In this document: piece after piece, positions 1 to 62,848 of the stretch
How positions within the stretch are numbered: position 1 is the stretch's first letter
How the letters are laid out: each line of letters begins with the position of its first letter
Notes under the pieces: generated by a model
What the model was told of the DNA's origin: nothing
The model's database searches: none
Seen by the model: only the letters and a program-made list of their open reading frames with translations
Made by a program: the position numbers and the translations under genes
Assembly: GCA_963843795.1 (NCBI GenBank)
Contig: CAWJLW010000006.1
Span: forward strand, 992,001 to 1,056,000
Source of the DNA: an uncultured bacterium
Lineage (GTDB): Bacteria; Armatimonadota; Abditibacteriia; Abditibacteriales; Abditibacteriaceae
Direction of reading: 5' to 3'
DNA length: 64,000 nt

Positions 1-3000
1 GCCACAACAGCGTCACGATTTTCAAACCGGCATTGCGGTCGCGCACACGACCGGCGATTTTGCTGAATTGACTCACAGTTTCTCGGTCGCGCGGTGTGTC
101 GAAAGCTAATTCGGGCGCGCGCTGGTCGATAACGTTCAAACGCACGCGCGCGGTTGCCGTGGTTTTGCCATCGCTGATGGCGTAGGTGAACTCATCGACA
201 CCGATTTTTCCGGTGCTGGGCAGGTAAAACAAGGTTCCGTCGTTGCGCAATTGAAAGCGGCCCTTGCTGGGATTATTAAGCGCACGCACTGTCGGTTTGC
301 GACCTGCTGGAAAACTATCGTTGCGCAAAACGCCGGGCGCTTGAATTTGAAAAACGCCGCTGCTGAGCAGCACGATGCCGCTCGCTTGTGCTTGGCCTGG
401 TGCACCCAGAATCAGGCTGAAATCGTCATCGGTCGCGCTCACCGCCGCATCGCCACCGACGGCGATTTCAACGCTGGCCTGCGCGCTTGCTACGCCATCG
501 CTGACGCGGAACGTAAATGCATCCTTGCCAAGAAAACCTGCTTTTGCGCTATAAATCAAGTTCGGAATGTTGCCGGAAAGCGTGCCGTTTTGCGGATTGG
601 CAATGATGTCGAAACTCAGCGTGTCGTTATCAACATCAGTCGCGCCGAGCGTAATTCGCAGTGGTGTCGCGTTATCGGCTGTGAGTTGCTGCCTAATGGC
701 GACCGGCGCATCGTTGACAGCAAGTACTTGCAGCTCGATTGTCGCGAGGTTGGAATCCAGGGCGCCATCGTTGGCGGTGAAAGTGAAGCGATCCGCGCCG
801 TTGAAATTCACATCGGGCGTATAAATCAGGTTTGGCGCTGTTCCCGAAAGCGTGCCATGTTCCGGTGCAGCGACGATGCGCAAATTCAAATTTGCGACCG
901 GAGTCTCAATATCGCTCGCGCTCAACACGATATTCAAGGGCGTATCTTCGTCCGTCGAAAGCTGTTGCGCGTGGGCGATGGGAGCATCGTTGATGGCAAG
1001 TACTTGCAGCGCGATTTGAGCGATGTTGCTATCGGATGCGCCGTCGCTGGCAACGAAGCTGAAAGCGTCCGCTCCATTGAAGTTTGCGCTTGGCGTATAA
1101 ATTAAACTCGGTGCTGTGCCCGACAATGTGCCGTGTGCGGGCGGCGTCACGAGGCGGAAAGTTAAATTGGCAATTGGCGTATCAACATCAGTCGCGCCCA
1201 GAAGGATGTTAAACGGTGTATCTTCGTTCGTCGAAAGGTTTTGAGGTGACGCGACTGGCGCGTCATCAATCGCGTTTACGGTCAAAGTTGCGGTCGCATT
1301 CGCGCTATTTTCGCCCGAGTTGACCGCAAAGACGAGCGTGCGATTGGTGGTGTTGGGCGTGTCGCTGAGGTTGTTGTAACGAACGCTGGCAAGTACTTGC
1401 TGGTAATGCGCGATGCTATCGTTTCCGTTTAAATTCAGAGTGCGCGTCTGGGCGTTGTAATTCGCACTGATTTGCGTGCCGCTGACATTAGCGTTTAAAA
1501 TTTCGCTCGCGTTATCGGGGTTTTGGTTCAGTTGGACGGTCGCGCTACTCAATTCCGCGTTATTGGTGAGGACGATATTGGGCGCGATAACGATTGGCGT
1601 TTGTTCGCTGAAAGCTGTCGTCACATCCTTGCCTTCGGGACTGCCATTCAGGTCGATAGCAAGTGTGCTCACTGGAATTTGTACTTCAAAAGAGCCCGCA
1701 TCGTTATGGCTGCTGGCCGAGCGCGGAAATCCGCGTTGATCGGTCGTGATGGCGGCGAGCGGTGTCGCCAAATTCAAAGCCGGACTATCGGCCATTAAAG
1801 CGTGCGTCAATGTCGGTCCGTCGTTATTGGCCAGCACTTCCAGCCGCGCATCCAGCGGCGCGGCCACAGTTCCGACGCGGTCGTTGGCACCAAAGCCCGT
1901 TGCGCTGCCGACTTTGCCGATGACATTGAAGCCACCCGAAACGTAAGCACCGCGCAAATCGGGATTGCTGTTGGCGCTATTTCCGGCGACTATAGAGCGC
2001 GCCAGGTTGCCGCTGCCCGAGCCGAGATCAATCGCGCCGCCATTCGATGCGCTGTTGTTGGTGAACGTGGTGAATTGAGTAGTGAGCGCCGCATTGCTTT
2101 GGGGAACGCTGAGTGCAATGGCACCGCCGCTGCCGTTCGCTGTGTTGCCCGAAAGCGTGCTGTTGATAAAGCTAAGTGGAGTTGTGCTCCAAACTCCGCC
2201 ACCCGCACTGTTGGCCGCGTTGCCGTTGAGCGTGCAGCCGATGAAGAAGACGCCGCTCGAAGTCGTGGTAGAAACCGCCGCACCTTTGTTGGCGCGGTTG
2301 TTGGATAATGTGCAATTGGTGAGCGTGACGCGCGGACAAAAAAAGACCGAAAGCGCGCCGCCTTCGCCGCTTATGGCCCTGTTGTCGTTGAATGTGCAAG
2401 CGTTGAAATTCACCAGATCGTCGGGATCGGTGTTGAGTTGGATGGCGCCGCCGCGATTGGAGTCCGCCACCGAGTTGCCGTTAAAAACGCAATTGGTCAG
2501 CACGGTTGTGCCGTCGGAATAAATCGCGAGCGCACCGCCTGACGATTGTGCGCTGTTGCCATTGAAAATGCAATCGGTGGCTGATGAAGGCCGATTTTGC
2601 GCATACGAAAAGAATTGCACCGCGCCCTGAAAATTGTCGCTGATGTTGTTAAGAAACTTGCAACGCAGCAAGCGCAAGACGCAGCCGCCATTGATGGCCC
2701 CGGCCTCCGTGGTCGCGTGGTTGCCGCTGAAAACACAATCGGTGACGCTCAGAATTCCCGAACTTTCGAAATCGTTAGCGTTGGGCACGGTTTGAATGGC
2801 GCCGCCTTTGGCCGCCAGTCCATTGGTGAAAGTCAGGCCCGAAACCGCCGCGTTGCCCACGCCATCGGAATAGAAAATGTTGCTTTGTGCGTTGCCGTTT
2901 AAACTCAAGACACCAGCGCCCGGCCCGCTGATAGTCAGACTGCTCCCAACAGGCCGCGAGATATTAAGGTTGCTGCCATTGAGCGTAATTGTGCCGGTTA

Positions 3001-3400
3001 CATGGCTCGCAAAGCTCACGATTGGCGTCTGCGCACTGGGAAAAGTACGCGCGTAATCAATCGCTTCGCGTAAAGTGGTTTCGCCATCGTTGGCTACGAT
3101 ATCAGCGTTGCTGGTTACAATTAGCGAACGTGCTTCGGGCACTTCGGCAGCGGCTGTGACGAAAAAGCTGCGCGCAGAAATCAAACGGTTGCGAAATTGT
3201 GTGGCGAAACCATTGAGGTACGTACCATCGCTCGCGGGCGGATAATCGGCGTGTAACCCGACGGTCAGGCTGTCGCCAATTACGGTGTCTCTTTTGGTTT
3301 GCGCGTGCGCCGGTAACAGAAAAATCACTGCAAATAGACACAGGGCAAGTACTTGCAGGTCGCGCTGTTGCGGCTGCTTTTTCCATCGTCTCATTCCCAT
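1..3400 (-). CDS. Large secreted/surface protein (partial, runs off window start): signal peptide, CSLREA-like motif, beta-helix/polymorphic membrane protein-like repeats, tandem Ig/cadherin-like (Big_9-type) repeats
   Basis: Not in the ORF track because it has no in-window stop. Manual translation from ATG 3400 (GGGAGAG upstream): MGMRRWKKQPQQRDLQVLALCLFAVIFLLPAHAQ...TTLREAIDYA...VNAIDDAPVASPQNLSTNEDTPFNIL...LQVLAINDAP...LQVLAVNDAP. The same frame is still open at the points checked, down to positions 2-60. Confidence 0.85.
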   Translation of the reverse strand, partial: MGMRRWKKQPQQRDLQVLALCLFAVIFLLPAHAQTKRDTVIGDSLTVGLHADYPPASDGTYLNGFATQFRNRLISARSFFVTAAAEVPEARSLIVTSNADIVANDGETTLREAIDYARTFPSAQTPIVSFASHVTGTITLNGSNLNISRPVGSSLTISGPGAGVLSLNGNAQSNIFYSDGVGNAAVSGLTFTNGLAAKGGAIQTVPNANDFESSGILSVTDCVFSGNHATTEAGAINGGCVLRLLRCKFLNNISDNFQGAVQFFSYAQNRPSSATDCIFNGNSAQSSGGALAIYSDGTTVLTNCVFNGNSVADSNRGGAIQLNTDPDDLVNFNACTFNDNRAISGEGGALSVFFCPRVTLTNCTLSNNRANKGAAVSTTTSSGVFFIGCTLNGNAANSAGGGVWSTTPLSFINSTLSGNTANGSGGAIALSVPQSNAALTTQFTTFTNNSASNGGAIDLGSGSGNLARSIVAGNSANSNPDLRGAYVSGGFNVIGKVGSATGFGANDRVGTVAAPLDARLEVLANNDGPTLTHALMADSPALNLATPLAAITTDQRGFPRSASSHNDAGSFEVQIPVSTLAIDLNGSPEGKDVTTAFSEQTPIVIAPNIVLTNNAELSSATVQLNQNPDNASEILNANVSGTQISANYNAQTRTLNLNGNDSIAHYQQVLASVRYNNLSDTPNTTNRTLVFAVNSGENSANATATLTVNAIDDAPVASPQNLSTNEDTPFNILLGATDVDTPIANLTFRLVTPPAHGTLSGTAPSLIYTPSANFNGADAFSFVASDGASDSNIAQIALQVLAINDAPIAHAQQLSTDEDTPLNIVLSASDIETPVANLNLRIVAAPEHGTLSGTAPNLIYTPDVNFNGADRFTFTANDGALDSNLATIELQVLAVNDAPVAIRQQLTADNATPLRITLGATDVDNDTLSFDIIANPQNGTLSGNIPNLIYSAKAGFLGKDAFTFRVSDGVASAQASVEIAVGGDAAVSATDDDFSLILGAPGQAQASGIVLLSSGVFQIQAPGVLRNDSFPAGRKPTVRALNNPSKGRFQLRNDGTLFYLPSTGKIGVDEFTYAISDGKTTATARVRLNVIDQRAPELAFDTPRDRETVSQFSKIAGRVRDRNAGLKIVTLLW

Positions 3401-3723
3401 TCGCTCTCCCAGCCAATTGACTTTTCGTACATCTCTTGCAAAGTTACTTTACCCAAATTTGAACTGTCGCAGCTTTCGAGCCGATTATTTTGCGCTCTTT
3501 TTTACTGGTAAACGCTCGCAATTGTAAAATGCTGTGAAGCAGCGTGTTCAACGGCGCTGCAAGTAACTTGCTTTATAATGTTAGTCAAGGGGATAAGCGC
3601 AGAACGTGGTCGTTTATTGTGTTATGATGGCATCGTAACTTCGCAAAGTGTTTTGAAACCGGCGCTTTGTGGAATAGTGATGTGGAAAGAAATTTCGTTA
3701 ATAGATTGGGGAATAAGATTGTT

Positions 3724-4488
3724 ATGGCAGCAACTTCACAGGCGTTGATTGCTTTTCTGGAAGATCACTCGTTAGAAGTGCTGAAAGATGCGCTCGATGA
3801 TGTGCGTTCGCATGCCGGGCCGAGCTTGAAAAATGCTTCCGACGACGACTTGCAGGTCGCCATGTACACAGTGTTACTCAAAGTGCTGGATGCAATGCGC
3901 GAAAAAGCTGCCGCGCCCGTTGAAAGCACCAAAGACGTGCGTACGCTTTATTTGCGCCATGCACGCGCCCTGATGGAATTCATCGACGCACAAAGCGCTT
4001 ACACTGCGGGCCACACCGCCGCCGTCGTGCGCCACACCGTGCAAATCGCTTCGCGCATGAACCTTTCCGATCCCGAAATCGACGATTTGGAATACGCGGC
4101 CTGGATTCATAATATCGGCCTCATTAATCAATCGCAAAAATTGTCGCTTTTGCCGCGCGCTTTAAGCCAAGACGAACTCAAAGCCGCGCGGAATCACACC
4201 GTTGTCGGCGCGGAAATGATTCGCCCGATTGAATTTTTGTCGCCGATGGTGCCAATTGTGCGTTATCACCATAATCGCTACGATGGCGGCGGACAGGGCG
4301 AATTGCAGGGCCCGAACATTCCGCTCGGCGCGCGCATCATTATGCTGGCCGACGCTTATCAAGCCATGCTCGAACCGCGCGCTTATCGTCCCGCATTGTC
4401 GCGCCATGACGCCCTTACCGAAATCAACAAAGGCGCTGGCTCACAGTTCGATCCCGCGCTGGTGCAATACGCGCACGAACTGACCTGA
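3724..4488 (+). CDS. HD-GYP domain protein with degenerate motifs
   Basis: YTAGHTAAV, AAWIHNIG, HTVVGAEMI, VRYHHNRYDGGG, IPLGARIIMLADAY, GAGSQFDP. Start placed at ATG 3724. Confidence 0.85.
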   Translation: MAATSQALIAFLEDHSLEVLKDALDDVRSHAGPSLKNASDDDLQVAMYTVLLKVLDAMREKAAAPVESTKDVRTLYLRHARALMEFIDAQSAYTAGHTAAVVRHTVQIASRMNLSDPEIDDLEYAAWIHNIGLINQSQKLSLLPRALSQDELKAARNHTVVGAEMIRPIEFLSPMVPIVRYHHNRYDGGGQGELQGPNIPLGARIIMLADAYQAMLEPRAYRPALSRHDALTEINKGAGSQFDPALVQYAHELT

Positions 4489-4500
4489 ATTTTGAAAATC

Positions 4501-4546
4501 AAAAGCGCGCTGCAAGTAACTGCGCAAGTACTTGCAGCGCGCTTTT
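4501..4546. terminator. Hairpin with two tandem palindrome units at its centre and A/T tails (probable intrinsic terminator)
   Basis: AAAAGCGCGCT-GCAAGTAACTGC-GCAAGTACTTGC-AGCGCGCTTTT, just after the HD-GYP stop. Confidence 0.7.
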
Positions 4547-4570
4547 TCGCTATTTAAAGGACGAGATTTT

Positions 4571-5860: not shown

Positions 5861-5864
5861 AGGC

Positions 5865-5920: not shown

Positions 5921-5939
5921 ATTAGAGTCAGGAGGAAAG

Positions 5940-15729: not shown

Positions 15730-17306
15730 ACGGTTTGATTCGCAGCATCGGCAGTTTGGAAACACCCGCGCCCAACGACGTGACGCTTTCTGAAGAAGGG
15801 CAACGCGCGCGGCGCGTGATGGCTTTGCCGATAAATCTGGAAACTTATGTCGTCGGCGAAGAAAAATTTCCCGATTTGTCAGCCGCCGATAAGGCGCAAT
15901 TGGAAACTTTAATCGGCTCGCATCGCGTCGAAATTACTTTTTATGACGCTGAATACAATGTTGTGACACAACCGCAAAAGCCGGGACGTTACGGCGCGGT
16001 AATTGAAATCACACCAGAAAACGGGCGCGTCACGCGACGTTTTCGCACGCTGTTTCGCCCCGCTCAAGAGTTCGCGTGGTGGCGCACTTTCGTGCCGATG
16101 AACCTCGAAATGCCGCCTGAAATCGGGATTAGCGCGCAAGCCATGCAGGCGCATCGCGAAGAAATCAGCAATTACTTGAAAATTCTCTGGCTCAAAAGCG
16201 CGCGCACCGATTGGCAATGTGCGGCACTTTTAGCGGGTTTGTATGAGAATTCTGCCGAAGATGTGTGGGCGCGCGACCGGCAATGGTGGGTCGGTTTGAA
16301 ACGCGTGATTTACAATATGGAGGCCCCACTGCCGTTTGAAGCGCCGCAAGTACTTGCCGGTCAAAACGCGCCAGTTTTACGCGCTGGAACACCTGAAGAA
16401 GCGGACATCCAAAGCGACGCGATTGAAAAATTGGACGCACTTCTGACCCGTTGGGCAAACGACAGCGATCAAGCGTTTTCGGTGTGTTTGGCGCGGCACA
16501 GCGTGGTTTGGTTTGAGCGCGCTTATGGCTCTGGCATGACGACGGAAACGCCGACGTGGATGGCGAGCATTTCCAAACTGTTGGCCGGTTCGCTATTGAT
16601 GATGTTGGTAGATGCCAAACGCGTGAATTTGGATGAGCCGATTGGCGCGTATCTTCCAGTTTGGCGCGATGTGCAAACTTCGCCGCCGCTGACTTTGCGC
16701 CATTTAATGACGCACACGGCGGGCTTGTGGGAGCATCTGGGTGACGAGTTGCACGATTGGGAAGAAATCGTGGCGCAGTTCGCGCCGCATCTGCAAATCG
16801 GCCAGCGCTACGAATATAATGGTGCGAGCTTGGCTTTGGCGGGCAAAATTATCGAAGCCGTCACCGGCAAAGCTCTGCCACAATGTTTCGCGCACCATTT
16901 GTTACAGCCTTTGGGCCTGAAGCACACGACGATTGACACCATGTCTTGGAACACGCAAGGCACGGCGCGCGATTTGGCGACTCTCGGGCAAATGCTGTTG
17001 AATCAAGGGGCGTATGGCGATAAGCGATTTTTCAGCGCGGAAACTTTTGAGATGCTGCTGCCGCAACGCTTGACGAAAACGCTTGGCCCGGAAACCACAG
17101 AAGAATATGGCATCGGTTCGAGCTGGTTCCGCGATGAAGGTTTGGGCACGGGCACTTTTGCGCACGGCGCGGCTTCGTCGGCGACGCTTCGCATTGATCC
17201 AGAAAACGATTTAATCGTGATGATGGCGCGCAACGCTGCGGGTGCAAATTTCGACAAATATCATCCACAATTTCTGCAAGTTATTGGTGAGAGCTTGGTT
17301 GATTAA
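15726..17306 (+). CDS. Serine hydrolase (beta-lactamase/esterase family) with N-terminal extension
   Basis: MASISK (SxxK), LTLRHLMTHTAG, YEYNG, FAHGA. ATGA overlap with the upstream stop fixes the start at 15726. Confidence 0.85.
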   Translation: MNGLIRSIGSLETPAPNDVTLSEEGQRARRVMALPINLETYVVGEEKFPDLSAADKAQLETLIGSHRVEITFYDAEYNVVTQPQKPGRYGAVIEITPENGRVTRRFRTLFRPAQEFAWWRTFVPMNLEMPPEIGISAQAMQAHREEISNYLKILWLKSARTDWQCAALLAGLYENSAEDVWARDRQWWVGLKRVIYNMEAPLPFEAPQVLAGQNAPVLRAGTPEEADIQSDAIEKLDALLTRWANDSDQAFSVCLARHSVVWFERAYGSGMTTETPTWMASISKLLAGSLLMMLVDAKRVNLDEPIGAYLPVWRDVQTSPPLTLRHLMTHTAGLWEHLGDELHDWEEIVAQFAPHLQIGQRYEYNGASLALAGKIIEAVTGKALPQCFAHHLLQPLGLKHTTIDTMSWNTQGTARDLATLGQMLLNQGAYGDKRFFSAETFEMLLPQRLTKTLGPETTEEYGIGSSWFRDEGLGTGTFAHGAASSATLRIDPENDLIVMMARNAAGANFDKYHPQFLQVIGESLVD

Positions 17307-17354
17307 AACACGCAAGCGGGCTGCAAGTACTTGCAGCCCGCTTGCGTGTTTTAA
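17303..17354. repeat. 52-bp perfect palindrome between convergent genes, containing both stop codons
   Basis: TTAAAACACGCAAGCGGGCTGCAAGT|ACTTGCAGCCCGCTTGCGTGTTTTAA. Confidence 0.93.
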
Positions 17355-20028: not shown

Positions 20029-22518
20029 ATGCTCACAGCTTTTCCCCTCGCGCGCCGCGACGTGCGAAATATCTTGATTTTGTCTGTCCTGTCGCTCTTG
20101 TTTTATACGCCTGCGATTATCGCCGTCGTTCGGGGAGATTGGCCTTTCACCGATGATGCGCCGGGCCTTTTTGCGCCCTGGCACGCTTTCGCCGCGCAGA
20201 ATTTGCGCGCTGGCATCTGGCCGTTTTGGAACCCGCATCTCTTCGCCGGTTCGATTTTTATGGCCAACGGACAAAGCGGCGTGCTTTATGCGCCCAACTT
20301 GCTTTACCTGTTTTTGTCGCCGCGCAGCGGCTTGCTGTGGGACGCGCTGTTTCACCAATTCGTGCTGATTGGGGGGGCCTATTTTCTGGGTCGCGCGCTG
20401 AATTTGCGTCGCAGTTCGTGCGTTTTTCTGGGCCTGACAATGGGACTAGGCGCTTCGGTTTCGGCGCACGTCTACGCTGGTCACGATACCTGGCATGCGG
20501 CGCGAGCGTGGATGCCATGGCAATTGTGGGCGCTGCATAGCTTTGCACAAAATCAGAGACAAACCGATTCTGAAACTTCTCAACGGCCAGGTATGCGTTA
20601 TGCGTGGCTGCTGGGCGCATTTTTCGCGATTCAAGTCGCGGCTGGTTATCCACCGCTGGTCTTGCTGAGCGCTGCTTTGTGTGCGGCTTATGTGATCGCG
20701 CGTACCCTGATCCAGTGGCGAAAAATTGCGAACCGCAATGGCTTAATATGGCCACGAAGCTGGCCGCGCGCGCTGGCGATTGCAGGTTTAGTTGCGGCTG
20801 GTTTGTGCGCAATTATTTTGCTGCCGTTGCGAGAAGCGAGCAGTTTGTCGGTGCACGGTTCGGGCATCGAATGGAGCCAGGCGGTCATGTTGTCGGGCAG
20901 TTGGAAATCGTTTGTGCGCCTGCTGATGCCCGACCTTTTCGGTGGCAATAACCTGCTCGAATGGAGCATCGTTTACGGTGCGCACGAAGAAGCTGCCGCT
21001 ATCGGAATCTTACCCTTTTTTCTGGCTATGGGTGCGCCGTGGTGGACGCGGCGTTATCCGAATTATCAGCGCGCAAGCTGGTGGCTGTTGGCTTTGATGG
21101 TGGGAGCGTGCGCGATGGCGCTGGGCGAAAACACGCCGTTATATCGCTTGGCTTATGAAAATCTGGGCTTGATACGGCAGTTGCGTGTGCCGGTTCGCTG
21201 GGTCGAAGTGTGGTATCTGGCCGCTTCCGTCGCTGCCGCGCTGTCTTTCGATGCTTGGTACCGCACCGCAAGTACTTGCAGAGACTTCCGACGCGATCAT
21301 CGGGTGTTAGCGGGTTTGCTCGTGCTGTTAATGATAGCGGTCGTGGGCGCTGCATGGTGGTTATGGCAACGACCTGTTGATGGTAACTTTTGGCGCATTT
21401 ACGTGCAGCCTTTCGCCTTGTATCGCACGGATGCGGACCGCGCTTCTTACGCGCAGCTTTTGCGCGATACGGCTTTGCAGCAGTGCGCATGGACTCTGGT
21501 TTTGTGCGTTCTGGGATTGGTGTTTTGTCTGCGCGGCGTGCGCGGACAATGGACGCGACAATCCTGGCGACTGGCGATTTTGATATGGGTGACGATGGAT
21601 CTGGGTTTGGTCTTTATCGTAGGCGAACGAACCTGGCAGCCTGGCGCTGGTTCGCAGTGGCCCGCTTCGATGATTGCTCGCTATCGTCCCGGACAGCGCT
21701 GGGATACCAACGCCGATTGGCGCACCGTCAACAACGCGGTGAGGCGTAATATCGACCTGCTTAACGGCTACGATGCGCTCAACTCCAAAAACTTCTGGCA
21801 GTTCGTGCGCGCCGTTGAAGGGCGCAACGATATTTGGACGGATATGTATCAGCCCAGCCATCGCGGCCCGGTTCTGCGAGTCGCTGGCGTCACTCACACG
21901 CTCATCTATACACCCGCCTTGCGCAATTGGAAACCCACAGCAACGATGCGCTTGGTCGCTTCAGATAATGGCTGGCAGTTATGGCAGCACGACAGCGTAT
22001 GGCCGCGCTTTTATCTCACGCGTCGCATCCTGCGCGCCACACCCGAACGTATTCAGAAAGAGCTGCAAGTACTTGCAGCCAGCGCGAACCCGAAAAACGA
22101 CGATTATCCGGTGTTACTGGAAAATTCGGTGAAGTTGCCCTTTTTATCAGAAAATCAAAACGCTGCGCCCGGTCGCGTGCTGAAATGGCAGCGTTCGACC
22201 AACACGATCACGTTGAATGTGCAAAGTCGCGCGCCCGCCGTTCTCTCCATCGCCGATGCTTATGCGCCCGGTTGGCGCGTCTGGGTCAATGGCCGCGAAA
22301 CCGCGCTTTTGAAAGCCAACGCGATGTTCAAAGCCGTTGTTGTTCCTGCGGGAAACTCGCGCGTGCACCTGGTTTACGCACCACAAACTTTCCGATTGGG
22401 CGCATTTTTATCGCTGTGCGCGCTGGCGGCGTGCAGCGGCGCGCTAGTGGTTTATTTCTTAAGTCGTAGAGCTACAAAGGACACGGAGAAAATTTTCACA
22501 TCTCCGCGTCCATTGTGA
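20029..22518 (+). CDS. YfhO-family membrane protein (GT-C-like)
   Basis: WPFWNPHLFAG, LRVPVRW, NGYDAL, C-terminal DAYAPGWRVWVNG...VPAGNSRVHLVYAP. Confidence 0.85.
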   Translation: MLTAFPLARRDVRNILILSVLSLLFYTPAIIAVVRGDWPFTDDAPGLFAPWHAFAAQNLRAGIWPFWNPHLFAGSIFMANGQSGVLYAPNLLYLFLSPRSGLLWDALFHQFVLIGGAYFLGRALNLRRSSCVFLGLTMGLGASVSAHVYAGHDTWHAARAWMPWQLWALHSFAQNQRQTDSETSQRPGMRYAWLLGAFFAIQVAAGYPPLVLLSAALCAAYVIARTLIQWRKIANRNGLIWPRSWPRALAIAGLVAAGLCAIILLPLREASSLSVHGSGIEWSQAVMLSGSWKSFVRLLMPDLFGGNNLLEWSIVYGAHEEAAAIGILPFFLAMGAPWWTRRYPNYQRASWWLLALMVGACAMALGENTPLYRLAYENLGLIRQLRVPVRWVEVWYLAASVAAALSFDAWYRTASTCRDFRRDHRVLAGLLVLLMIAVVGAAWWLWQRPVDGNFWRIYVQPFALYRTDADRASYAQLLRDTALQQCAWTLVLCVLGLVFCLRGVRGQWTRQSWRLAILIWVTMDLGLVFIVGERTWQPGAGSQWPASMIARYRPGQRWDTNADWRTVNNAVRRNIDLLNGYDALNSKNFWQFVRAVEGRNDIWTDMYQPSHRGPVLRVAGVTHTLIYTPALRNWKPTATMRLVASDNGWQLWQHDSVWPRFYLTRRILRATPERIQKELQVLAASANPKNDDYPVLLENSVKLPFLSENQNAAPGRVLKWQRSTNTITLNVQSRAPAVLSIADAYAPGWRVWVNGRETALLKANAMFKAVVVPAGNSRVHLVYAPQTFRLGAFLSLCALAACSGALVVYFLSRRATKDTEKIFTSPRPL

Positions 22519-22529: not shown

Positions 22530-23384
22530 TTAAGAAAATTCAATTTGCGACACAAAACTTAAGCGTCCGCGCACGGGTAGCGAAAGCTGAAACAGGTTGC
22601 CCGCGTCGTCGCCACCGTCAGGGCCACCGGCGCTGGTGATAAACAACTGGTTCAAATCGGTGGTGCCAAAGGCGCATGAAGTCGCGTTGCGCGTTGGAAT
22701 TTCCACCGTTTCAACAATGACGCCTTCGGGATTGATGCGCCGCACCGCGCCGCCGCCCCAGAACGCGACCCACAAATCGCCAGCGCTATCGACTGTTAAA
22801 CCATCGGGCGCGCCTGTGCCGGGTTCGGCCCGAAAAAAGGTTTCGCGCTCGCCCACCGCGCCGGTTTCGGCATCGTAGGAGAAACGAAAAATCGTGCCGT
22901 GAGAAGTATCGGCCCAGTAAAATTGGCTCAAATCGGGCGAGAAACCCTGGCCATTGGCGCACTCTGTTCCGCTCCACAATTGTTCAATTCCGCCATTTTT
23001 ACGCACTCGGTATAAACCGCCGTTATCTCCGCCACGTCCCATCGTGCCCGCGAAAACTTCACCGTTGGGCGTGGCGATGACATCGTTGAAACGACCGCCT
23101 GCGGGCGCAACGCCTTCGGCAAGTACTTGCAGCGTGCCATCAAGATCGAGCCGCGCGATATTGTGTTCGCGGAACAACAAAAGCGCGCCATCGCTTTGCA
23201 GTGTGAAGCCGCCCACGGTTTCATCATCGTAAAATTGTCGCCACTGACCGCTACTCAAATCGAGTTCAAACAAACGACCGTTGGGAATGTCCGTCCACAG
23301 CACACGGTTGCGCTGGGCGTCGTATAAGGGGTTTTCGCCACAACCGCAGTGTGTGTCGGCGGCTGTTATGAGAGGGTAATTCAT
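22530..23384 (-). CDS. SMP-30/gluconolactonase/LRE family protein
   Basis: CGENP, WTDIP, RFND, ANGQGFSPD, PDGLTVDSAGDLWVA, TSCAFG. Confidence 0.92.
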   Translation of the reverse strand: MNYPLITAADTHCGCGENPLYDAQRNRVLWTDIPNGRLFELDLSSGQWRQFYDDETVGGFTLQSDGALLLFREHNIARLDLDGTLQVLAEGVAPAGGRFNDVIATPNGEVFAGTMGRGGDNGGLYRVRKNGGIEQLWSGTECANGQGFSPDLSQFYWADTSHGTIFRFSYDAETGAVGERETFFRAEPGTGAPDGLTVDSAGDLWVAFWGGGAVRRINPEGVIVETVEIPTRNATSCAFGTTDLNQLFITSAGGPDGGDDAGNLFQLSLPVRGRLSFVSQIEFS

Positions 23385-24341: not shown

Positions 24342-24360
24342 GTTCGCACCGCTGTGAAAT

Positions 24361-24398
24361 CGAAAAGCGCGCTGCAAGTACTTGCAGTGCGCTTTTCG
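24361..24398. terminator. Near-perfect palindrome centred on GCAAGTACTTGC between convergent genes (bidirectional terminator-like)
   Basis: CGAAAAGCGCGCTGCAAGT|ACTTGCAGTGCGCTTTTCG with one mismatch (G-T). Confidence 0.75.
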
Positions 24399-24412
24399 TT
24401 GAAAGCAAAAAT

Positions 24413-25048
24413 TTAACGTTCCAAACCTTTACCATAGCCAACCAGAAACTCGCGCCATTCGGGGCGACGCACAGCGGAAACAAAGCGCGGGAACGAAATA
24501 TAGGGTGTGTATTGCGGTTTGCGCGGCGGATGGGGCAGGCGCAGACCGGCTTCGCTGGGCGTTCGCGCGCCCTTTTTGTTGTTACAACGCAAACAACAGC
24601 AAACGACGTTTTCCCACGTCGTTTCCCCACCGCGATGGCGCGGAAAAACGTGGTCAATCGTGAGATTCGATTTCGAGCCGCAGTATTGGCATTCAAAGCT
24701 GTCGCGCGCCATCACCGATTTTCGCGAGATTTTCAGTTTTGGTAACGGACGCTTCACCTGTTCGCGCAAGCGCAACACGGAGGGAATTGGAAATTCGTCT
24801 TCGCCCGAGCACATCGTGCGATCAGAAAACTTGATGACTTCGGCGCGGTTCAACACCATTAACACCAAACCGCGGCGCACCGCGCAAATGTTTAGCGGCT
24901 CGAAGTTCAGGTTCAAAACCAGCACGCCATGTTCTTCGGCGTGTTGGTGGGCTTCCAACTCGGATTGGATTTCGGGGTGATGGGATAGCGCTTCGTCCTT
25001 GCGACGCGCTACGCGGCGAGAATTGCGATTGCGGGAATGAGTGCTCAT
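24413..25048 (-). CDS. HNH endonuclease (widespread McrA/HNH_5-like type)
   Basis: VLVLNLNFEPL, PSVLRL, RDSFECQYCG...TIDHVFPRHRGG...WENVVCCCLRCNNKKG. Confidence 0.92.
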   Translation of the reverse strand: MSTHSRNRNSRRVARRKDEALSHHPEIQSELEAHQHAEEHGVLVLNLNFEPLNICAVRRGLVLMVLNRAEVIKFSDRTMCSGEDEFPIPSVLRLREQVKRPLPKLKISRKSVMARDSFECQYCGSKSNLTIDHVFPRHRGGETTWENVVCCCLRCNNKKGARTPSEAGLRLPHPPRKPQYTPYISFPRFVSAVRRPEWREFLVGYGKGLER

Positions 25049-30873: not shown

Positions 30874-31005
30874 GAACAAACTATTTTAACAAAGCCGCGT
30901 GGAAATTATTTCAGTTTCGCCCGCAGCTGCACACATTTCGTAGGGCGCAGAGGGTTTTGGGAAGAATTGAGTCTTCGCAAGTACTTGCAGAAACCTCAAA
31001 ACACA

Positions 31006-31039
31006 AAAGCTGCCCTGCAAGTACTTGCAGGGCAGCTTT
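31006..31039. repeat. 34-bp perfect palindrome centred on GCAAGTACTTGC, downstream of clpX (a second bare copy lies at 30977)
   Basis: AAAGCTGCCCTGCAAGT|ACTTGCAGGGCAGCTTT. Confidence 0.9.
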
Positions 31040-36771: not shown

Positions 36772-36799
36772 AATTCAAGTTTCAGCTTGAAGCAATACG

Positions 36800-36835
36800 A
36801 AAACGCGCACAGCAAGTACTTGCTGTGCGCGTTTT
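36800..36835. repeat. 36-bp perfect palindrome centred on GCAAGTACTTGC between convergent genes
   Basis: AAAACGCGCACAGCAAGT|ACTTGCTGTGCGCGTTTT. Confidence 0.9.
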
Positions 36836-36847
36836 TCGATTATCAGT

Positions 36848-45814: not shown

Positions 45815-47167
45815 TTAGCCGGTTGGAATTCTGGTGATAGAGATTTGCTGATCGACCGGCAATTTCTGCACTGCGCTTTCAGTTCTGGGGTCTTCTGGCC
45901 TTAGCACTACGGCGTGATAAAGCTGGTCGCGCGCGATTTGCATATTGTTGGATTGTAGCGCTTTCAAGCCGGCCTGCAAGTACTTGCCATAGGTGGTTTC
46001 CAACTTTTGCTTCATAGCAAGTACTTGCGCGTCTCGTGGGGCGATTTGAAGCAGTTGATCCATGTAATATTGGGGCGGCCCGATCTGTTTTTGCTCATAG
46101 CGATAACGATACAACTCGTAGGCATCACCGTCTTTTTCGACGCTTTTTATCTGCAGCGCAATAAGCTGTAAATAGTTGGCAAGCTCTTTGGGAGAACGTT
46201 CGATACGATCTTTCAGCCCTTGCATCGCCTGATTCTGCTGTTTGAGTGCAGTGAAACGTTCTTGAAGTGCCTGAGCTTTTTGCGGTTCGCCCGCCATACG
46301 ATAAGCTTTGGCCAGTTCGAGGAAATGAGCCGAAGCGTAAGGCCGCCCGCGCCCCACTGCTTGGAAATGTTTGATGGCTTCGCGCGGTTGATTTTCTAAC
46401 AACGCCACACGCGCTAATGAACGATGGGCTTCGAGGTTGTCGGGTTCAAACGTGAGAACTTTTTTCCAATCGGCTTTGGCACGCTGCAAATTTTCTGGCG
46501 TAGGTTCGCTATAAAGCGCTTTGGCGTGCGCGTCCAAAGTGACGATGTTGTCCGGCTCCATCGCTAACGCCTTGTCCAGCAGAGGCTGCGCTTCGGCGTA
46601 GTTATAGCGTTCGGAATATTCCAAGGCCAACGCTAGCATTACCGTTGGGTTTTGCGGCTGCAATTTGTAAAGGCGTTGCAAATAATTAAGATGATCATCG
46701 TTGCGATGTTGAGTGCCTGAAACCGATGAAGCCACACGTAACGCAGGAATATTTTCCGGTTCTTTTTTTAATTCGGCTTCGGCATAAGCTCGCGCAGCTT
46801 CTAAATTACCCAGTTCCAACGCACATTTCGCCAGACGCGCATTCAAATCGCTGGTGTCCGGCTTGATTTGAAGGACGTGCTTGAAGGCTTCTAATGCCGA
46901 CGACCAATTATTCTCTGTCAAATAATAGTCGCCCAGCAAAACCCAGGCATCGGCATTGTTCGGCTCAAGTTTTACTGCTTGGCGCCACTCGATGGCCGCG
47001 GCCATGCTTTGGCCGCTTTCCATTTTTTGCAAGCCCGAATTAATATGACGCTGAGCCGGTGACTGCGCATAGCGCCAAGCCCAACTGCCCAACACAATGG
47101 CCATTAACAAAAGCAGAGCCGCGCTGGTGCGCGTTGAAAGGCGACGAATTATGGTTCGGAGTTGCAT
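45815..47167 (-). CDS. Membrane-anchored tetratricopeptide repeat protein
   Basis: N-terminal TM and TPR repeats (EPNNADAWVLLGDYY...). Start placed at ATG 47167. Confidence 0.85.
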   Translation of the reverse strand: MQLRTIIRRLSTRTSAALLLLMAIVLGSWAWRYAQSPAQRHINSGLQKMESGQSMAAAIEWRQAVKLEPNNADAWVLLGDYYLTENNWSSALEAFKHVLQIKPDTSDLNARLAKCALELGNLEAARAYAEAELKKEPENIPALRVASSVSGTQHRNDDHLNYLQRLYKLQPQNPTVMLALALEYSERYNYAEAQPLLDKALAMEPDNIVTLDAHAKALYSEPTPENLQRAKADWKKVLTFEPDNLEAHRSLARVALLENQPREAIKHFQAVGRGRPYASAHFLELAKAYRMAGEPQKAQALQERFTALKQQNQAMQGLKDRIERSPKELANYLQLIALQIKSVEKDGDAYELYRYRYEQKQIGPPQYYMDQLLQIAPRDAQVLAMKQKLETTYGKYLQAGLKALQSNNMQIARDQLYHAVVLRPEDPRTESAVQKLPVDQQISITRIPTG

Positions 47168-50021: not shown

Positions 50022-51362
50022 ATGTCATTGATGTCAAAAAACGCGGCCAAAATTGCCGCACTGTGTTTATTGGCCGTTTTCTTGTTTCACAGTCGCGTTC
50101 TGGCGGCAGGTGGTGAAGGCGGAACCGATGGTGGAGCGAAAATTCTGCTGTCGCTGTTCATCGTTTTCGTGGCGGCACAAATCGGAGCAGAAATCGCTCA
50201 ACGTTTGCAAATGCCCGGCGTCGTTGGCGAGATTGCCGCCGGTTGCGTCATCGGCCCGGCAGCCCTTAACTGGGTGCAAATCAACGAACCTTTGCACGTC
50301 TTAGCTGAAATCGGTGCGGTGCTTTTGCTGTTTTCGGTTGGTTTGGAAACGCGCGTGGGCGATTTGAAAAAGGTCGGACGCGTCGCCACGCAGGTCGGCA
50401 CACTGGGCTTGATTTTACCATTTATTCTAGCAACTGGTTGGGCGCTGCAACGGGGCGCTGATGTGCCCAAATCGCTGTTCGTCGCCGCGGCATTTGTCGC
50501 AACTTCGGCGGGCATCACGGCGCGCGTGTTGAACGATATGGGCGTGCTGGGACGCATTGAAAGCCGAGTGATTCTGGGCGCGGCGGTTATTGACGACATT
50601 TTAGCGATGCTGCTGCTGGGTGTGGTTACAGCGCTTTCCAAAGGTGAAGGCGTCGATATTCTCACGCTCGGTTTGGTAACGGTGCAAGCGATTGGTTTTG
50701 TCGGGTTGATTGCTTTGGTGGGCACGCGCATCGCCGCCAAACGAGGCACTGAGATTCTTGATGCGCCCATTAGCCCGTTTTCACATCTGACAATTGCTTT
50801 GGCTTTTTGTCTGGGTCTGGCAGCGGCGGCGGCATTTTTGGGGCTAGCGGCCATTATCGGGGCGTTTTTGGCTGGAATGGTGGCGGCAGAAACACGACAG
50901 CGCCATCAATTGGAAAAGCAAGTTCAGGTTTTGATGGCGCTTTTAGTGCCGTTCTTTTTCGTGGTGACAGGTGCGCAGGTGCAATTGAAAGAACTGGCCA
51001 ACTGGAGCACAATCGGTACTTTGCTTTTGGTAACAATTTTAGCTATCATCGGCAAACTGGTCGGTTGTGGTTTGGGCGCTAAATCGCTGGGCAAAAGGTC
51101 GGCGATGATCGTGGGTGTGGGCATGGTTCCGCGCGGCGAAGTTGGTATTATCGTAGCGACGTTGGGCTACAATTCGAAAATTTTCACCTCCGAATTGTAT
51201 TCGATTATTATCGCGATGTCGTTGCTGACTTCGGTTGTTGCGCCGCCCGCGCTGAAGATTTTGTTTTCCGGTATTGAACCTGATCCCGATGAAGAATCCG
51301 AAGAACCCTTTTCTTCACTCATTCCAGTCGATATGACCGGCTTCGACTCGCGCAATCCATAA
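50022..51362 (+). CDS. Cation:proton antiporter (CPA2, NapA/Kef-type)
   Basis: PGVVGEIAAG, ATSAGIT, AAVIDDI, GMVPRGEVG. Confidence 0.92.
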   Translation: MSLMSKNAAKIAALCLLAVFLFHSRVLAAGGEGGTDGGAKILLSLFIVFVAAQIGAEIAQRLQMPGVVGEIAAGCVIGPAALNWVQINEPLHVLAEIGAVLLLFSVGLETRVGDLKKVGRVATQVGTLGLILPFILATGWALQRGADVPKSLFVAAAFVATSAGITARVLNDMGVLGRIESRVILGAAVIDDILAMLLLGVVTALSKGEGVDILTLGLVTVQAIGFVGLIALVGTRIAAKRGTEILDAPISPFSHLTIALAFCLGLAAAAAFLGLAAIIGAFLAGMVAAETRQRHQLEKQVQVLMALLVPFFFVVTGAQVQLKELANWSTIGTLLLVTILAIIGKLVGCGLGAKSLGKRSAMIVGVGMVPRGEVGIIVATLGYNSKIFTSELYSIIIAMSLLTSVVAPPALKILFSGIEPDPDEESEEPFSSLIPVDMTGFDSRNP

Positions 51363-51403
51363 AAACGCCTGTGCAAGTACTTGCACAGGCGTTTTTATGG
51401 ATT
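51354..51403. repeat. 50-bp perfect palindrome centred on GCAAGTACTTGC between convergent genes
   Basis: AATCCATAAAAACGCCTGTGCAAGT|ACTTGCACAGGCGTTTTTATGGATT. Confidence 0.93.
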
Positions 51404-56735: not shown

Positions 56736-56766
56736 AATTTATCAAATTCGTTACGGCTGCGGGCTT

Positions 56767-58095: not shown

Positions 58096-58100
58096 GCTGA

Positions 58101-59489: not shown

Positions 59490-59647
59490 GAAAAGTTTCC
59501 TTTCGAGGGTTTTATCGACAACACCTGATTTGGGGTGCATCCATTATAACCGACAATTGGCGCATTTTCGGTGGCGAAAGTCGGGACGAAAACTCCAAAA
59601 GCCACCTGCAAGTACTTGCAAGTGGCTTTTCGGGACGAAAATTCGGG

Positions 59648-60550
59648 TTACATTTTCAGGGTTTTGAGATCGATTTCGCCAGTGAAAGCGGTTGTCGCGG
59701 GGCCGGTCATATAAACGTGGTCATTATCGGCCCAGTCGATTTCCAGATCGCCACCGGGCAAATGCACCAGCGCGCGGCGTTTCTCGGCGGGCAACTTTCC
59801 GTTCAAGGCCGCTGCGACCGTCACCGCGCACGCGCCGCTGCCACACGCCAAAGTGTCACCTGCGCCCCGTTCCCATGTGCGCATCCACAGTTTATGCGGG
59901 CCGATAACCTTCACGAAATGCACGTTGGTACGCGCGGGAAACATTTCGTGATGTTCAATGGCGAAACCCAGCTCTTTCAAGGGCACCGATTCAACATCAT
60001 CGACAAAAATGACGACGTGCGGATTGCCCATGGAAACTGCTGTGATGCGGAACTCTTCGCCCTCGACATGCAGCGTTTCATTAATCACATGATGATCGTG
60101 GCCGTTGCCTTCGAGCGAGGCCATCGGAATTTGCGAACGCTGCAAGCGCGGCGCACCCATATCGACGCGCACGCGCAAATCGCGCGCGCCACGCTTTCCG
60201 GCATCTAAAATTTCAACGCTTTGCAAACCTTGCGTGGTCGCGACCGAAACGCTTTGCGCATCGACGTGGCCATTATCATATAAGTATTTGGCGAAACAAC
60301 GAATGCCATTGCCGCACATTTCGCTTTCGCTGCCATCGGGATTGAACATCCGCATTCGATAATCGGCGTGCTCGTCGGGCAGAATCAGAATCACGCCATC
60401 GGCACCAACGCCAAAATGACGAATGCAGACCGCTTCGCTGAACGATTCCAAATGCTCGGTCGGAATGGGTTCTCCTTCAAGGCAATCGATCATCACAAAA
60501 TCGTTGCCCAAACCGTGCATTTTGATAAATTTGACAGTGTCAGTTTTCAT
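59648..60550 (-). CDS. dapF: Diaminopimelate epimerase
   Basis: KMHGLGNDF, GVGADG, NPDGSESEMCGNG, SMGNPH, ERGAGDTLACGSG. Confidence 0.97.
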   Translation of the reverse strand: MKTDTVKFIKMHGLGNDFVMIDCLEGEPIPTEHLESFSEAVCIRHFGVGADGVILILPDEHADYRMRMFNPDGSESEMCGNGIRCFAKYLYDNGHVDAQSVSVATTQGLQSVEILDAGKRGARDLRVRVDMGAPRLQRSQIPMASLEGNGHDHHVINETLHVEGEEFRITAVSMGNPHVVIFVDDVESVPLKELGFAIEHHEMFPARTNVHFVKVIGPHKLWMRTWERGAGDTLACGSGACAVTVAAALNGKLPAEKRRALVHLPGGDLEIDWADNDHVYMTGPATTAFTGEIDLKTLKM

Positions 60551-60586
60551 GATTTGAATTTTGAGTAGTCACTTGAGGCGCTTGCT

Positions 60587-60733
60587 TTAGCGATGGCTGA
60601 GCCAGAAGGCGACGAACGCCATGAATCCGCCAGCACCGCCAACCAGTGCGATCAAGAACAGAAAATTTTTCAAGCCTTCAATGACTTCATCGTCATACCA
60701 ATCGTTTTTGCTTTCGCGTAGAAATTTGAACAT
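60587..60733 (-). CDS. Small single-pass membrane protein (48 aa), below the ORF-track cutoff
   Basis: MFKFLRESKNDWYDDEVIEGLKNFLFLIALVGGAGGFMAFVAFWLSHR*, with GAGGG upstream. Fills the gap upstream of dapF. Confidence 0.65.
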   Translation of the reverse strand: MFKFLRESKNDWYDDEVIEGLKNFLFLIALVGGAGGFMAFVAFWLSHR

Positions 60734-60799
60734 AACTTAAAACCCTCGCAACCAAATTACCCCAAACATTTTAACGCGAAACCAAAGCCGTGCGCACAA

Positions 60800-60829
60800 A
60801 AACGCCCTGCAAGTACTTGCAGGGCGTTT
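60800..60829. repeat. 30-bp perfect palindrome centred on GCAAGTACTTGC (terminator-like)
   Basis: AAACGCCCTGCAAGT|ACTTGCAGGGCGTTT. Confidence 0.88.
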
Positions 60830-60857
60830 GATATGACTGTTTTTCGATGGTCGTTAA

Positions 60858-61928
60858 TTAATTGGTTGGCAAATCGAGCGGCGCGATTTCCAGGATGCTG
60901 CCCAGCTCCTGCGTTTGTTTGATTGGGCCGCCGGTCTGCAAAAACCACTCTGTTTTGGCGACCGGAAGGCGATTTTCCATGCGCACGGTTTTATCAACGC
61001 CCGCATCAATGTTCAATTGCGTGTTGTTGTCGGCCCCGAAACGTGCGCGCGTGAGAGCGAGCCATTGGCCGCTTGAAGCCTGTACCCAACCTTGCCCGAA
61101 GCGCGCGCGCCGCGCTTGCAAGACGCTTTTACCATCGCGCCGGAAATCTTCGATGAACGAATACAAACCGCGAATATCGCGCGAGGTCGAAGGTGCGCGC
61201 AGCGAAGCCATTAATTTCCAATCTTTGATGCCATCGCCGCTAATATAGGCGCTATAAATCACGCGGTCGCGGTCGGAGGTGGCGCGAATCATAAAGCGAT
61301 AAGTGCGACCGGTTTTCCACGAGAACGGCCATACGGTTTTCACTCCGGTGCCTTCGCCGCCAAAACGCGTCGCCTCGACTCCATCGCCCGGAGCTAAAAC
61401 TTCCACACGATAAGGCGCGGTCACGGCGTCGGGATTATCGCCGCGCCAATTGTCCCAGACTGAAAAAATCGCGATTTTGCGCTTGTCTGGTAACTCTTGC
61501 AAACCAAAATATCCGCCGCCAAAGCCCAGCGCCATGAAATAGGAGCCGGGAGTCGAATCGTCAATGGTCATTTCGGTAACGGCGATTTGCGCGGGCGGCG
61601 CGGCCCACCACAAATGTACCGAGCGCGCTGCCTGCGGATTTTGTGCTGGATTGACGGCTGGAGCGGTTTCGGTCGCGCTTTGGGCGCGTGGTGCTTGGAT
61701 TGGAAGCGGCGCGCTTTGACGTTGCTGGTTTTGATGTTGTGGAGAAGTTTGTTGCGGCGGAATCGAATTCACCGGCGCGGGCGGCAATGTGGGCAGAGTT
61801 GTTTCGTATTCGCCGGGGGCAAGATTATCGTCGCGCTGGGCTTGTGCCCACAATGGCGTTGTCGCGGCGAAAAGGGCGCCCGACATCACGCCGAAGCGAA
61901 CTAAATTGCGGTGTAGAAAGCTGTGCAT
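60858..61928 (-). CDS. Secreted DUF3472-like protein
   Basis: Signal peptide, Pro/Gln linker, GGYFGLQE...IFSVWD, RFGGEGTG, YSFIEDF. Confidence 0.75.
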   Translation of the reverse strand: MHSFLHRNLVRFGVMSGALFAATTPLWAQAQRDDNLAPGEYETTLPTLPPAPVNSIPPQQTSPQHQNQQRQSAPLPIQAPRAQSATETAPAVNPAQNPQAARSVHLWWAAPPAQIAVTEMTIDDSTPGSYFMALGFGGGYFGLQELPDKRKIAIFSVWDNWRGDNPDAVTAPYRVEVLAPGDGVEATRFGGEGTGVKTVWPFSWKTGRTYRFMIRATSDRDRVIYSAYISGDGIKDWKLMASLRAPSTSRDIRGLYSFIEDFRRDGKSVLQARRARFGQGWVQASSGQWLALTRARFGADNNTQLNIDAGVDKTVRMENRLPVAKTEWFLQTGGPIKQTQELGSILEIAPLDLPTN

Positions 61929-62006
61929 GGAAAACTCCTGTGTTCTGTGATGAAAGCTGTAAAGTGTGCTGCGTTAATCGTTCGAAAACTATGCCATTGC
62001 GTCGCG

Positions 62007-62807
62007 CTATCTGAAAGCGATACCGAACAATTGTTGCGCGTTGCGCGCAGTTTGCGCGCCCAAGTCTTCAATTGTCACGCCGCGCAATTCGGCCAAAAAT
62101 TGCGCCGTATAGGCCACAAACGCCGGTTCGTTGGTCTTACCACGTTTGGGAACCGGCGCGAGATAGGGCGCATCGGTTTCAATCAGTAAGCGTTCCACAG
62201 GACACCATTTTGCGACTTCGCGCACGATGTGCGAATTCTTGAAAGTCATGATACCGCCGAAACCCAGGTAAAAACCCTGCGCAAGTACTTGCTGAGCCAA
62301 TTCCCTGTCGCCGGTGAAACAGTGCACCACGCCACGCGCACCCGGTACGCTTTTTATTGCGTTCAGTAAGACTTGGTCGGCATCGCGATTGTGTAAAACC
62401 ACTGGCAAATCGAGTTCGCGCGCGATTTGCATTTGCGCGCGCAAAACTTCGATTTGTCGTGCGCGCGTCGCGCCCGGATATTCCGCGTGCGAATCGTCGT
62501 AAAACCAATCCAGACCAATTTCGCCGACCGCCACCATGCGCTGATTTTGCAACAATTCGCGCAATCTTTGCGGCGAACCGTCATCGTCCCACTCCAACGC
62601 GCGCTGCGGATGCACGCCCGCCGACGCATAAATTTCGACGTTATGCGTTGGTTGTTGCAACTGTTGCTGGATAAATGTGGCTGTTTCCAAGCTATCGGCG
62701 ACATTGAGAATCGCGCTGACATTCGCGGCGTGCGCGCGCTGTAAAACCGCGTCCCAATCGGACGCCAACTTTTCATCGGCCAAATGACAATGAGAATCGA
62801 AAAGCAT
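62007..62807 (-). CDS. tatD: TatD-family nuclease
   Basis: FDSHCHL, GVHP, VGEIGLD, LHNR, VHCF, IETDAPYL. Confidence 0.93.
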   Translation of the reverse strand: MLFDSHCHLADEKLASDWDAVLQRAHAANVSAILNVADSLETATFIQQQLQQPTHNVEIYASAGVHPQRALEWDDDGSPQRLRELLQNQRMVAVGEIGLDWFYDDSHAEYPGATRARQIEVLRAQMQIARELDLPVVLHNRDADQVLLNAIKSVPGARGVVHCFTGDRELAQQVLAQGFYLGFGGIMTFKNSHIVREVAKWCPVERLLIETDAPYLAPVPKRGKTNEPAFVAYTAQFLAELRGVTIEDLGAQTARNAQQLFGIAFR

Positions 62808-62848
62808 AAAATCGGCCTGCAAGTACTTGCAAGGTGTAAAACGTAAAA

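Follow-up and report, generated by a model that had tools for sequence, protein, structure and literature searches.

The 64,000-nucleotide stretch of DNA analysed here (the window) comes from an uncultured bacterium of the family Abditibacteriaceae and carries a 12-bp palindrome, GCAAGTACTTGC, in 42 exact copies between positions 720 and 62830. The word is iterated throughout the source genome and, together with related words, belongs to an apparently unpublished family that combines features of the highly iterated palindrome (HIP) and of the DNA uptake sequence (DUS). We assign a probability of about one half to a reading in which the family has a GTAC-built tag of self-DNA, acting in transformation either at uptake or at recombination, and the 12-mer is one of its dialects. 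Exactness, protein-altering copies, conserved sites, dialects and the absence from acquired DNA lend good support to the proposal of an earlier note on this sequence that the word is maintained genome-wide by a dedicated mechanism of the HIP, DUS or USS (uptake signal sequence) kind, but they do not single out which mechanism this is.

In the window, the recount gave the 42 copies that had been claimed, with a mean of 0.01 and a maximum of 1 in 100 dinucleotide shuffles, and the more than ten near-copies turned out to be 6 with one change and 11 with two. According to our own gene calls, 17 copies are coding and 25 intergenic. Five of the latter lie inside longest open frames, so that the coding count ranges from 17 to 22 depending on the start codon, which accommodates the earlier split of 20 coding and 22 intergenic copies; those placed beside lon, clpX, mgtE and tatD were found as described. 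The earlier note had also proposed counting the word and its one-mismatch variants genome-wide. In the source genome (G000; 4.30 Mb, 11 contigs, 92% complete, main contig C6), GCAAGTACTTGC is the most frequent 12-mer with 2,567 exact copies, about one every 1.7 kb, whereas its one-mismatch variants sum to 506. Genome-wide, the copies sit in an extended consensus that runs from an A-rich tract over GCGCT, the 12-mer and AGCGC to a T-rich tract, with the A/T tracts 8-11 and 17-22 bases out and the A-rich flanking tracts spaced one helical turn.

The 12-mer is real and not an artefact of assembly or adapters, nor is it confined to one contig, as the earlier note had allowed. Copies are present on all 11 contigs, and short-read contigs of run X1, which is possibly from the same sample as the source of the genome, cover the copies at 22065 and 23119 with zero letter differences. 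A metagenome scan for the 12-mer returned at least 132 loci; among the matches listed, most belong to two other species, represented by independent assemblies, with approximately 65-78% nucleotide identity to G000, 62-67% GC and the same 12-mer at about 0.2-0.4 per kb, their loci partly overlapping. Short metagenome contigs of 50-55% GC (L370, L371, L378, L393) carried the motif with G000-like flanks and had no BLAST match to G000; they are perhaps mobile elements or another lineage. A virus record of 68 kb and 39% GC (G043, loci L490-L493, with fragments G045 and G046) held 20 exact copies with flanks of its own, RTGCAAGTACTTGCAC, and another (G044) held 4 exact copies in 101 kb. When the viral loci tested were compared with G000 by tblastn, the sole link was a 26% DNA polymerase match, and these copies could be a phage operator or mark a phage of a motif-bearing host.

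Coding copies carry much of the argument. Against 20 synonymous-codon shuffles of the genome, a null that the earlier note had suggested and that yielded 2-13 copies, 744 coding copies were observed, and the corresponding peptides were enriched (QVLA 14.6-fold, ASTC 33-fold), while control peptides were not. Compared with motif-less genera, the amino-acid identity was 0.29 at the sites and 0.57 in the flanks, and only 4 of 23 alignments were gapped at the site. At 12 sites with at least two orthologues lacking this 12-mer, the relatives matched each other at 0.56 (flanks 0.73) and G000 at 0.35 (flanks 0.62). Since both identities are below those of the flanks, the sites seem somewhat permissive and in addition altered by the motif. 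Of 120 AroB homologues, 11 contained one motif peptide and 12 the other, almost all of them being close relatives within this set. Coding sites, none of which had served as a search seed, were kept within one mismatch at 17 of 30 and 14 of 28 positions in the two species sharing the dialect, in comparison to 10% and 8.5% for control 12-mers. Judged by these alignments, the coding copies alter the proteins that carry them. Within the window, copies read as xQVLA lie at 22065..22076 on the plus strand, where the predicted RNA fold gives no significant hairpin (z -1.4), and at 23119..23130 on the minus strand, both confirmed by a short-read contig. Three more lie at 720..1400 (minus strand) in a large gene that runs off the left end, two of them in the similar contexts IELQVLAVN and IALQVLAIN.

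With regard to placement, our gene calls for G000 (3,374 genes, 85% coding) put 744 copies in coding sequence (29%) and 1,811 in intergenic sequence (71%), with 12 on edges. Among gaps of up to 400 bp, a copy was contained in 1,004 of the 2,034 between tandem genes, 253 of the 391 between convergent genes and 179 of the 337 between divergent genes. The density on C6 stayed between 47 and 83 copies per 100 kb from 0.1 to 3.6 Mb and neither fell nor rose at the switch of GC skew near 1.45 Mb. Two internal stretches of 26 kb are the longest without a copy; IS-like genes and a type I restriction locus lie in them. Also free of copies is a 38-kb contig end (G000:C6:3585353-3623414), whose last 23 kb have 67% GC. 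Going by sequence content, the motif is evenly spread except in acquired DNA. By eye, frames in this contig end resemble conjugation (VirB-type) genes, which suggests an integrated element or a chimeric join.

On a smaller scale, coding copies make up for spacer copies that are missing nearby. Their median distance to the nearest spacer copy was 1,054 bp, compared to 675 bp for random coding positions, and the coding density within 500 bp of a gap was 0.12 and 0.15 per kb if the gap bore a copy and 0.25 and 0.27 per kb if it did not (p 0.002 and 0.011); three control words gave no consistent direction in the same test. The pattern fits a situation in which one tag per fragment suffices. Gaps of more than 4 kb between copies numbered 68, compared to 96-135 under the placement null. 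Close neighbours (149 pairs, 16-115 bp apart) clustered at multiples of approximately 10.4 bp (10.3-10.5 bp) with R=0.36, a value reached by 0 of 20,000 jittered sets, which points to proteins sitting, or DNA bending, on one face of the helix. Examples in the window are the two copies 40 bp apart in the clpX-lon gap (30977..31028) and two coding copies 41 bp apart on the minus strand (45976..46028), whose frames differ and read KYLQ and QVLA.

The exact 12-mer was found only 0-3 times in each of 40 relatives, G001 of the same genus included. A hyper-abundant word with an AGTAC core was nevertheless present in 7 of 27 family genomes, in five dialects: GCAAGTACTTGC in G000, CAAAGTACTTTG in G001, TCGAGTACTCGA in G009, G015 and G019, CGAGTACTCG in G012 and AGTACGGTCGA in G006. 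The last is the only one that is not palindromic, and GTAC is the only 4-mer palindrome common to all. A degenerate 12-mer matched 1,624 times in G001, 2,900 in G009, 2,602 in G015 and 2,315 in G019, RAGTACTY matched 4,371 times in G012, and the G006 word reached 2,412 copies. In 460 kb sampled from G006, 178 of 311 copies formed inverted pairs and 133 were single. Strand polarity of the kind known from Chi and KOPS, which is tied to the direction of replication, was absent, as the 12-mer is palindromic and the single half-sites in the fetched G006 DNA ran 66 with and 67 against the local skew, in weak-skew stretches; Chi-like polarity was therefore rejected for G006.

At sites occupied in G000, exact or near forms of the other dialects appeared in 5 of the 9 alignments with G001, in 1 of the 4 with G009 and in 1 of the 12 with G012, and because they stand at the same codons, at least some sites predate the divergence of the dialects. 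The phylum was sampled with 251 genomes, and outside the family none of those listed had more than 356 RAGTACTY matches. A quick Lon tree grouped G000, G001 and one metagenome species and left the other motif genomes without resolved positions, outside a clade that also holds motif-less genera. The motif may go back to an ancestor, with several later losses. By its named relatives, a G000 protein assigns the organism to Abditibacteriaceae; it is 77% identical to its orthologue in Abditibacterium utsteinense.

Several clusters in other genomes were observed besides. The otherwise motif-less G017 (L587-L590) holds about 20 copies of the G001 dialect clustered on a few contigs, some adjoining genes 65-75% identical to genes on contig C2 of G000; they are likely DNA acquired from a motif-bearing donor. 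Clusters of AGTACT-cored words on contigs C98 and C508 of G024 (L494, L495), a genome otherwise almost without GTAC, suggest that this DNA was acquired or that the contigs were mis-binned. Two further words that recur and are not palindromes, ACACCAGCCACG in G016 (L035, L510, L565) and CACAAAAAATGA in G020 (L567, L568), are locally abundant and perhaps represent arrays or other repeats.

G000 has one PF01555 methyltransferase (C6:2517365-2518135, 256 aa) with the DPPY signature of the N6/N4 type; no C5 or Dam-family match was found in this genome, and other N6-type matches include one inside a type I island. Of 26 family relatives, 20 have an orthologue of the enzyme, and the six other motif genomes are all among them, which with G000 gives 7 of 7. 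In three family genomes and at four distant loci, a gene of approximately 215 aa lies next to or within 3 kb of it. This gene matches REase_II, a PADLOC model of type II endonucleases (E 1e-7 to 6e-12), and has no Pfam match; the structure predicted for it, at pLDDT 89, is similar to restriction nucleases, with a middling Z of 5-6.5. An adjacent endonuclease with a restriction fold, typical of type II restriction-modification systems, was thus seen in relatives only and not in G000. The nuclease-like gene was detected in 13 of the 26 relatives, all of them among the 20 motif-less ones, and in 0 of 7 motif genomes (Fisher p 0.006, overstated as kin are not independent). Within genus g6, the sole holder, G017, is also the sole member without a genome-wide motif. 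Two profiles run over six frames found no diverged copy in G000, and a profile search without a positive control found none in G000, G006, G009, G012 and G007.

Of 136 4-mers, GTAC separated nuclease holders best from motif-less non-holders, with a median observed/expected ratio of 0.02 in 13 holders and 0.43 in 7 non-holders (p 0.0004, uncorrected; samples of 12-160 kb per genome). The holders G017 and G003 were only mildly depleted (0.33 and 0.53), and the non-holders G007 and G016 were depleted (0.16 and 0.13). CTAG was rejected as the target of the enzymes because it is depleted class-wide whatever the genes and does not separate the two groups; one proxy pattern showed its depletion in all 31 class genomes. 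In G000, many 6-bp palindromes stand at 0.17-0.24 of expectation, and GTAC outside the motif at 0.59. Homology searches gave no named specificity for either enzyme. From the abundance data we infer that the methyltransferase and nuclease pair would recognise GTAC and that the motif genomes keep the methylase alone. This strengthens the hint of the earlier note at a GTAC core, as GTAC is the sole palindromic 4-mer shared by all dialects and the pair tracks GTAC abundance in the family.

A hydrophobic start resembling a signal peptide was noted in 10 of 11 readable family copies of the nuclease-like gene (L516-L528, 13 genomes), and the distant copies L119, L141, L163 and L172 seemingly have no such start; the family copies are possibly exported restriction nucleases. 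In G020, the methyltransferase on contig C88 (L471) is 75% identical to the G000 enzyme, compared to 57-61% for genus-mates, and adjoins a nuclease-like gene without a hydrophobic start, where transfer of an intact pair is possible.

According to the tag reading, the word would mark DNA as kin in natural transformation, at uptake or recombination, and tagged alleles would consequently spread even at a cost to the protein. The solitary methyltransferase would methylate GTAC and derive from a restriction-modification pair whose nuclease was lost in the motif-bearing lineages. A sequence-specific reader would favour tagged DNA, with shifts in its specificity making the dialects, and spacer copies would have been co-opted as intrinsic terminators, as is the case for DUS and USS.

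The machinery for transformation is present. ComEA, ComEC and DprA were found in G000 together with a type IV pilus locus of two ATPases, PilC, a prepilin peptidase and four pilins (L489:2800-15700, that is G000:C6:385800-398700). Its genes look split in the assembly, but five single extra bases that cause frameshifts are missing from the short-read contigs. The G000 assembly thus contains indel errors, and truly broken pilus genes were rejected for these five frameshifts, with other breaks not covered. Prepilin-like proteins number 35 in this genome, and most of them share one type of nearly identical N terminus.

A number of observations weigh against a self-DNA tag. The pilus-locus gene set is alike in motif-bearing and motif-less relatives and DprA occurs in 29 of 31 class genomes, so the competence genes do not track the motif, and uptake specificity is allowed by the locus but not demonstrated. 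No reader protein was found; across 21 genomes, in a comparison that did not extend to the 35 prepilin-like proteins, no gene in the pilus locus was specific to the motif, and none was seen beside the methyltransferase. Characterised DUS and USS cores are non-palindromic, whereas four of five dialects are palindromes, and the helical phasing is unexpected from uptake alone and suits a protein on the chromosome. The intergenic share of 71% exceeds that of DUS and USS genomes, in which 35-65% of copies lie in open reading frames (PMC2817400). Two relatives (G004, G007) carry the methyltransferase without a nuclease match and without the motif, two (G016, G025) are poor in GTAC with neither gene found, and the motif genomes are 63-95% complete, and kin are not independent. 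Finally, the best solved relative of the methyltransferase is M.RsrI, which leaves GTAC specificity to inference, and m4C is the product of the six GTAC enzymes of Blow et al. 2016 (PMC4752239), while the enzyme of G000 has DPPY.

The most probable alternative, although doubtful, takes the motif as the site of an abundant dimeric chromosome-organising protein that would bend or bridge the DNA about every 1-2 kb, the dialects tracking changes in the protein. SlmA, Noc and MatP sites are 12-14 bp palindromes bound by dimers, and the SlmA site presumably shares its central hexamer with the 12-mer of G000. The two-fold symmetry of the motif, the helical phasing with its phased A-tracts, the local compensation and the shortage of long gaps all speak for such a protein, and a role in chromosome structure has been proposed for HIP1 (PMC5861425). 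However, the known sites number tens rather than thousands, and density across the GC-skew switch is flat, with neither exclusion from nor restriction to this region. As no TetR-family match (TetR/SlmA) was found in G000 and no terminus gap exists, SlmA-like nucleoid occlusion was rejected. Moreover, the G006 half-site is single in the 133 copies mentioned above, most family members lack such a word, which would be odd for a core chromosome function, and the link to the nuclease is left unexplained.

An unlikely, wider variant of the tag reading assumes two opposite GTAC gates on incoming DNA. In one group, an exported restriction nuclease would destroy unmethylated GTAC-containing DNA before entry, and GTAC would be purged from the genomes. 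In the other, the nuclease would have been lost and the methylase kept, and an evolved reader would favour methylated GTAC-cored words and so have driven the tags of each dialect into the genome by the thousands.

Improbable is a further explanation, in which the word arises as a by-product: repair or gene conversion coupled to methylation would ratchet near-matches around methylated GTAC up to the complete word, without a reader that benefits the cell; such a model was proposed by Elhai for HIP1 (PMC4390886). It would account for the common GTAC core, the conserved solitary methyltransferase and the coding copies, which mostly arose by in-place substitution, as the few gapped alignments to motif-less genera indicate. 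The same methyltransferase, however, accompanies five different flanks and is found without the motif in 14 family genomes, GTAC outside the motif is depleted instead of raised, and neither the compensation between coding and spacer copies nor the helical phasing is expected from a local ratchet.

Spacer copies have an additional property. In convergent gaps, the complementarity of the arms was 0.76-0.88 over the first ten positions, with 0.37-0.71 expected, whereas no covariation of left and right arms was seen in the coding copies of G000. At least five extra perfect pairs and a T run were found in 181 of 287 copies in convergent gaps, in 270 of 1,262 in tandem gaps and in 24 of 267 in divergent gaps, and in 7 of the 744 coding copies. 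RNA folds of four spacer examples gave z values of -6 to -11, compared to -1.4 for one coding example. In the window, these are the convergent-gap copies at 17305..17352 (22-bp perfect hairpin with a GUAC loop and A/U tails, z -9.3) and 51355..51402 (22-bp perfect hairpin, z -11.5), both predicted two-way intrinsic terminators, at 36795..36842 (long hairpin with A and U tracts, z -7.3) and at 24357..24402 (17-bp hairpin, z -6.4). The last lies beside a gene for a 211-aa HNH-domain protein (24413-25048), whose likeness to Cas9/IscB is confined to the HNH stretch. In Rfam, the sole match at the gathering score was a tRNA and hairpin matches were far under the thresholds; no RNA holding the 12-mer was among the matches listed. 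Because the arms pair in spacers and not in coding copies, the 12-mer is the constant unit and the terminator role a predicted second use, with the copies between convergent genes predicted to serve secondarily as terminators. A terminator-only reading is ruled out for coding copies by the absent arm covariation and by the conserved sites that alter proteins.

Hairpin-forming palindromes that are abundant between genes and lie close to gene ends are also typical of REP/REPIN elements with RAYT transposases. That the copies are REP-like mobile palindromes or a favoured terminator spread by a transposase is very improbable and, for the coding copies, already largely refuted by their alignments: the intergenic majority, the convergent hairpins with covarying arms and one partial Y1 transposase match would agree with it, but the coding copies are in-frame substitutions with few gaps at positions conserved across species at about 70% identity, instead of almost wholly extragenic insertions, copies also occupy more than half of the divergent gaps, where a terminator is unneeded, and the Y1 match, with E 4e-7 over model positions 40-119 of 121, is weak, is no convincing RAYT, and has its nearest motif copies at ordinary spacing.

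Among known systems, HIP1 (GCGATCGC) is similar in being a short exact palindrome iterated genome-wide (PMC4390886, PMC5861425, PMC13756078), with a core that is the predicted target of a solitary methyltransferase and with alternate words in related lineages; as for HIP-type words, over-representation exceeds codon and composition nulls and positions are conserved above control words. A reader protein is known for neither. HIP1 raises transformation, an effect that depends on methylation (10.1101/2024.09.10.611283). The Abditibacteriaceae word differs in phylum, core, its 12-bp length, extended flanks and phased A-tracts, and it is strongly intergenic, serves as a hairpin centre, with many spacer copies making up the loop of a long hairpin, has one non-palindromic dialect, is tied to the loss of a nuclease-like gene, and its methylation is predicted. 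HIP1 proper was excluded, given the other word and phylum, the lack of a Dam-family or C5 methylase match and the depletion of CGATCG in G000.

The likeness to DUS and USS includes thousands of exact copies at 1-2 kb spacing and clade-wise dialects with a constant inner core, here AGTAC (PMC3630211, PMC12616744), as well as peptide enrichment, absence from acquired DNA and double use in terminators (PMC2397512, 10.1101/2025.10.24.684340), the last two in our case read from sequence only. Uptake sequences are missing from acquired genes (PMC2817400). Competence genes are present, though motif-less relatives have the same, and the A-rich flanks resemble the AT tracts of USS. The inverted pairs and strand-unbiased singles of G006 correspond to the DUS/USS layout, and 8 of 9 letters of its word are as in Hin-USS (PMC12616744), probably by chance across phyla. 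On the other hand, four of the five dialects are palindromes, the core is a predicted methylation site, and a ComP- or ComN-like receptor was not found. The 12-mer itself did not appear in the literature searched, which omits most subscription papers, and publications on palindromes, repeats or uptake dialects under names beginning with Abditibacteri or Armatimonad, judged by title or abstract start, included none on the motif.

Sequence-specific DNA uptake has been established in only two families (PMC12616744). If the two-gate view were true, a third uptake-sequence system would have evolved independently in Abditibacteriaceae, and the family would show how a restriction-modification site can turn into a tag of the HIP or DUS type. 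A restriction-type nuclease with an export signal, if it is one, would be unusual in itself. The family constitutes a natural experiment: it has five dialects, relatives without the motif, a methylase candidate and a nuclease-like gene that excludes the motif where it is present. The origin of such tags from a methylation site becomes testable here with a few enzymes and with a cultured relative, provided that the latter bears a dialect. In addition, transformation of these little-studied soil bacteria may require the dialect together with its methylation.

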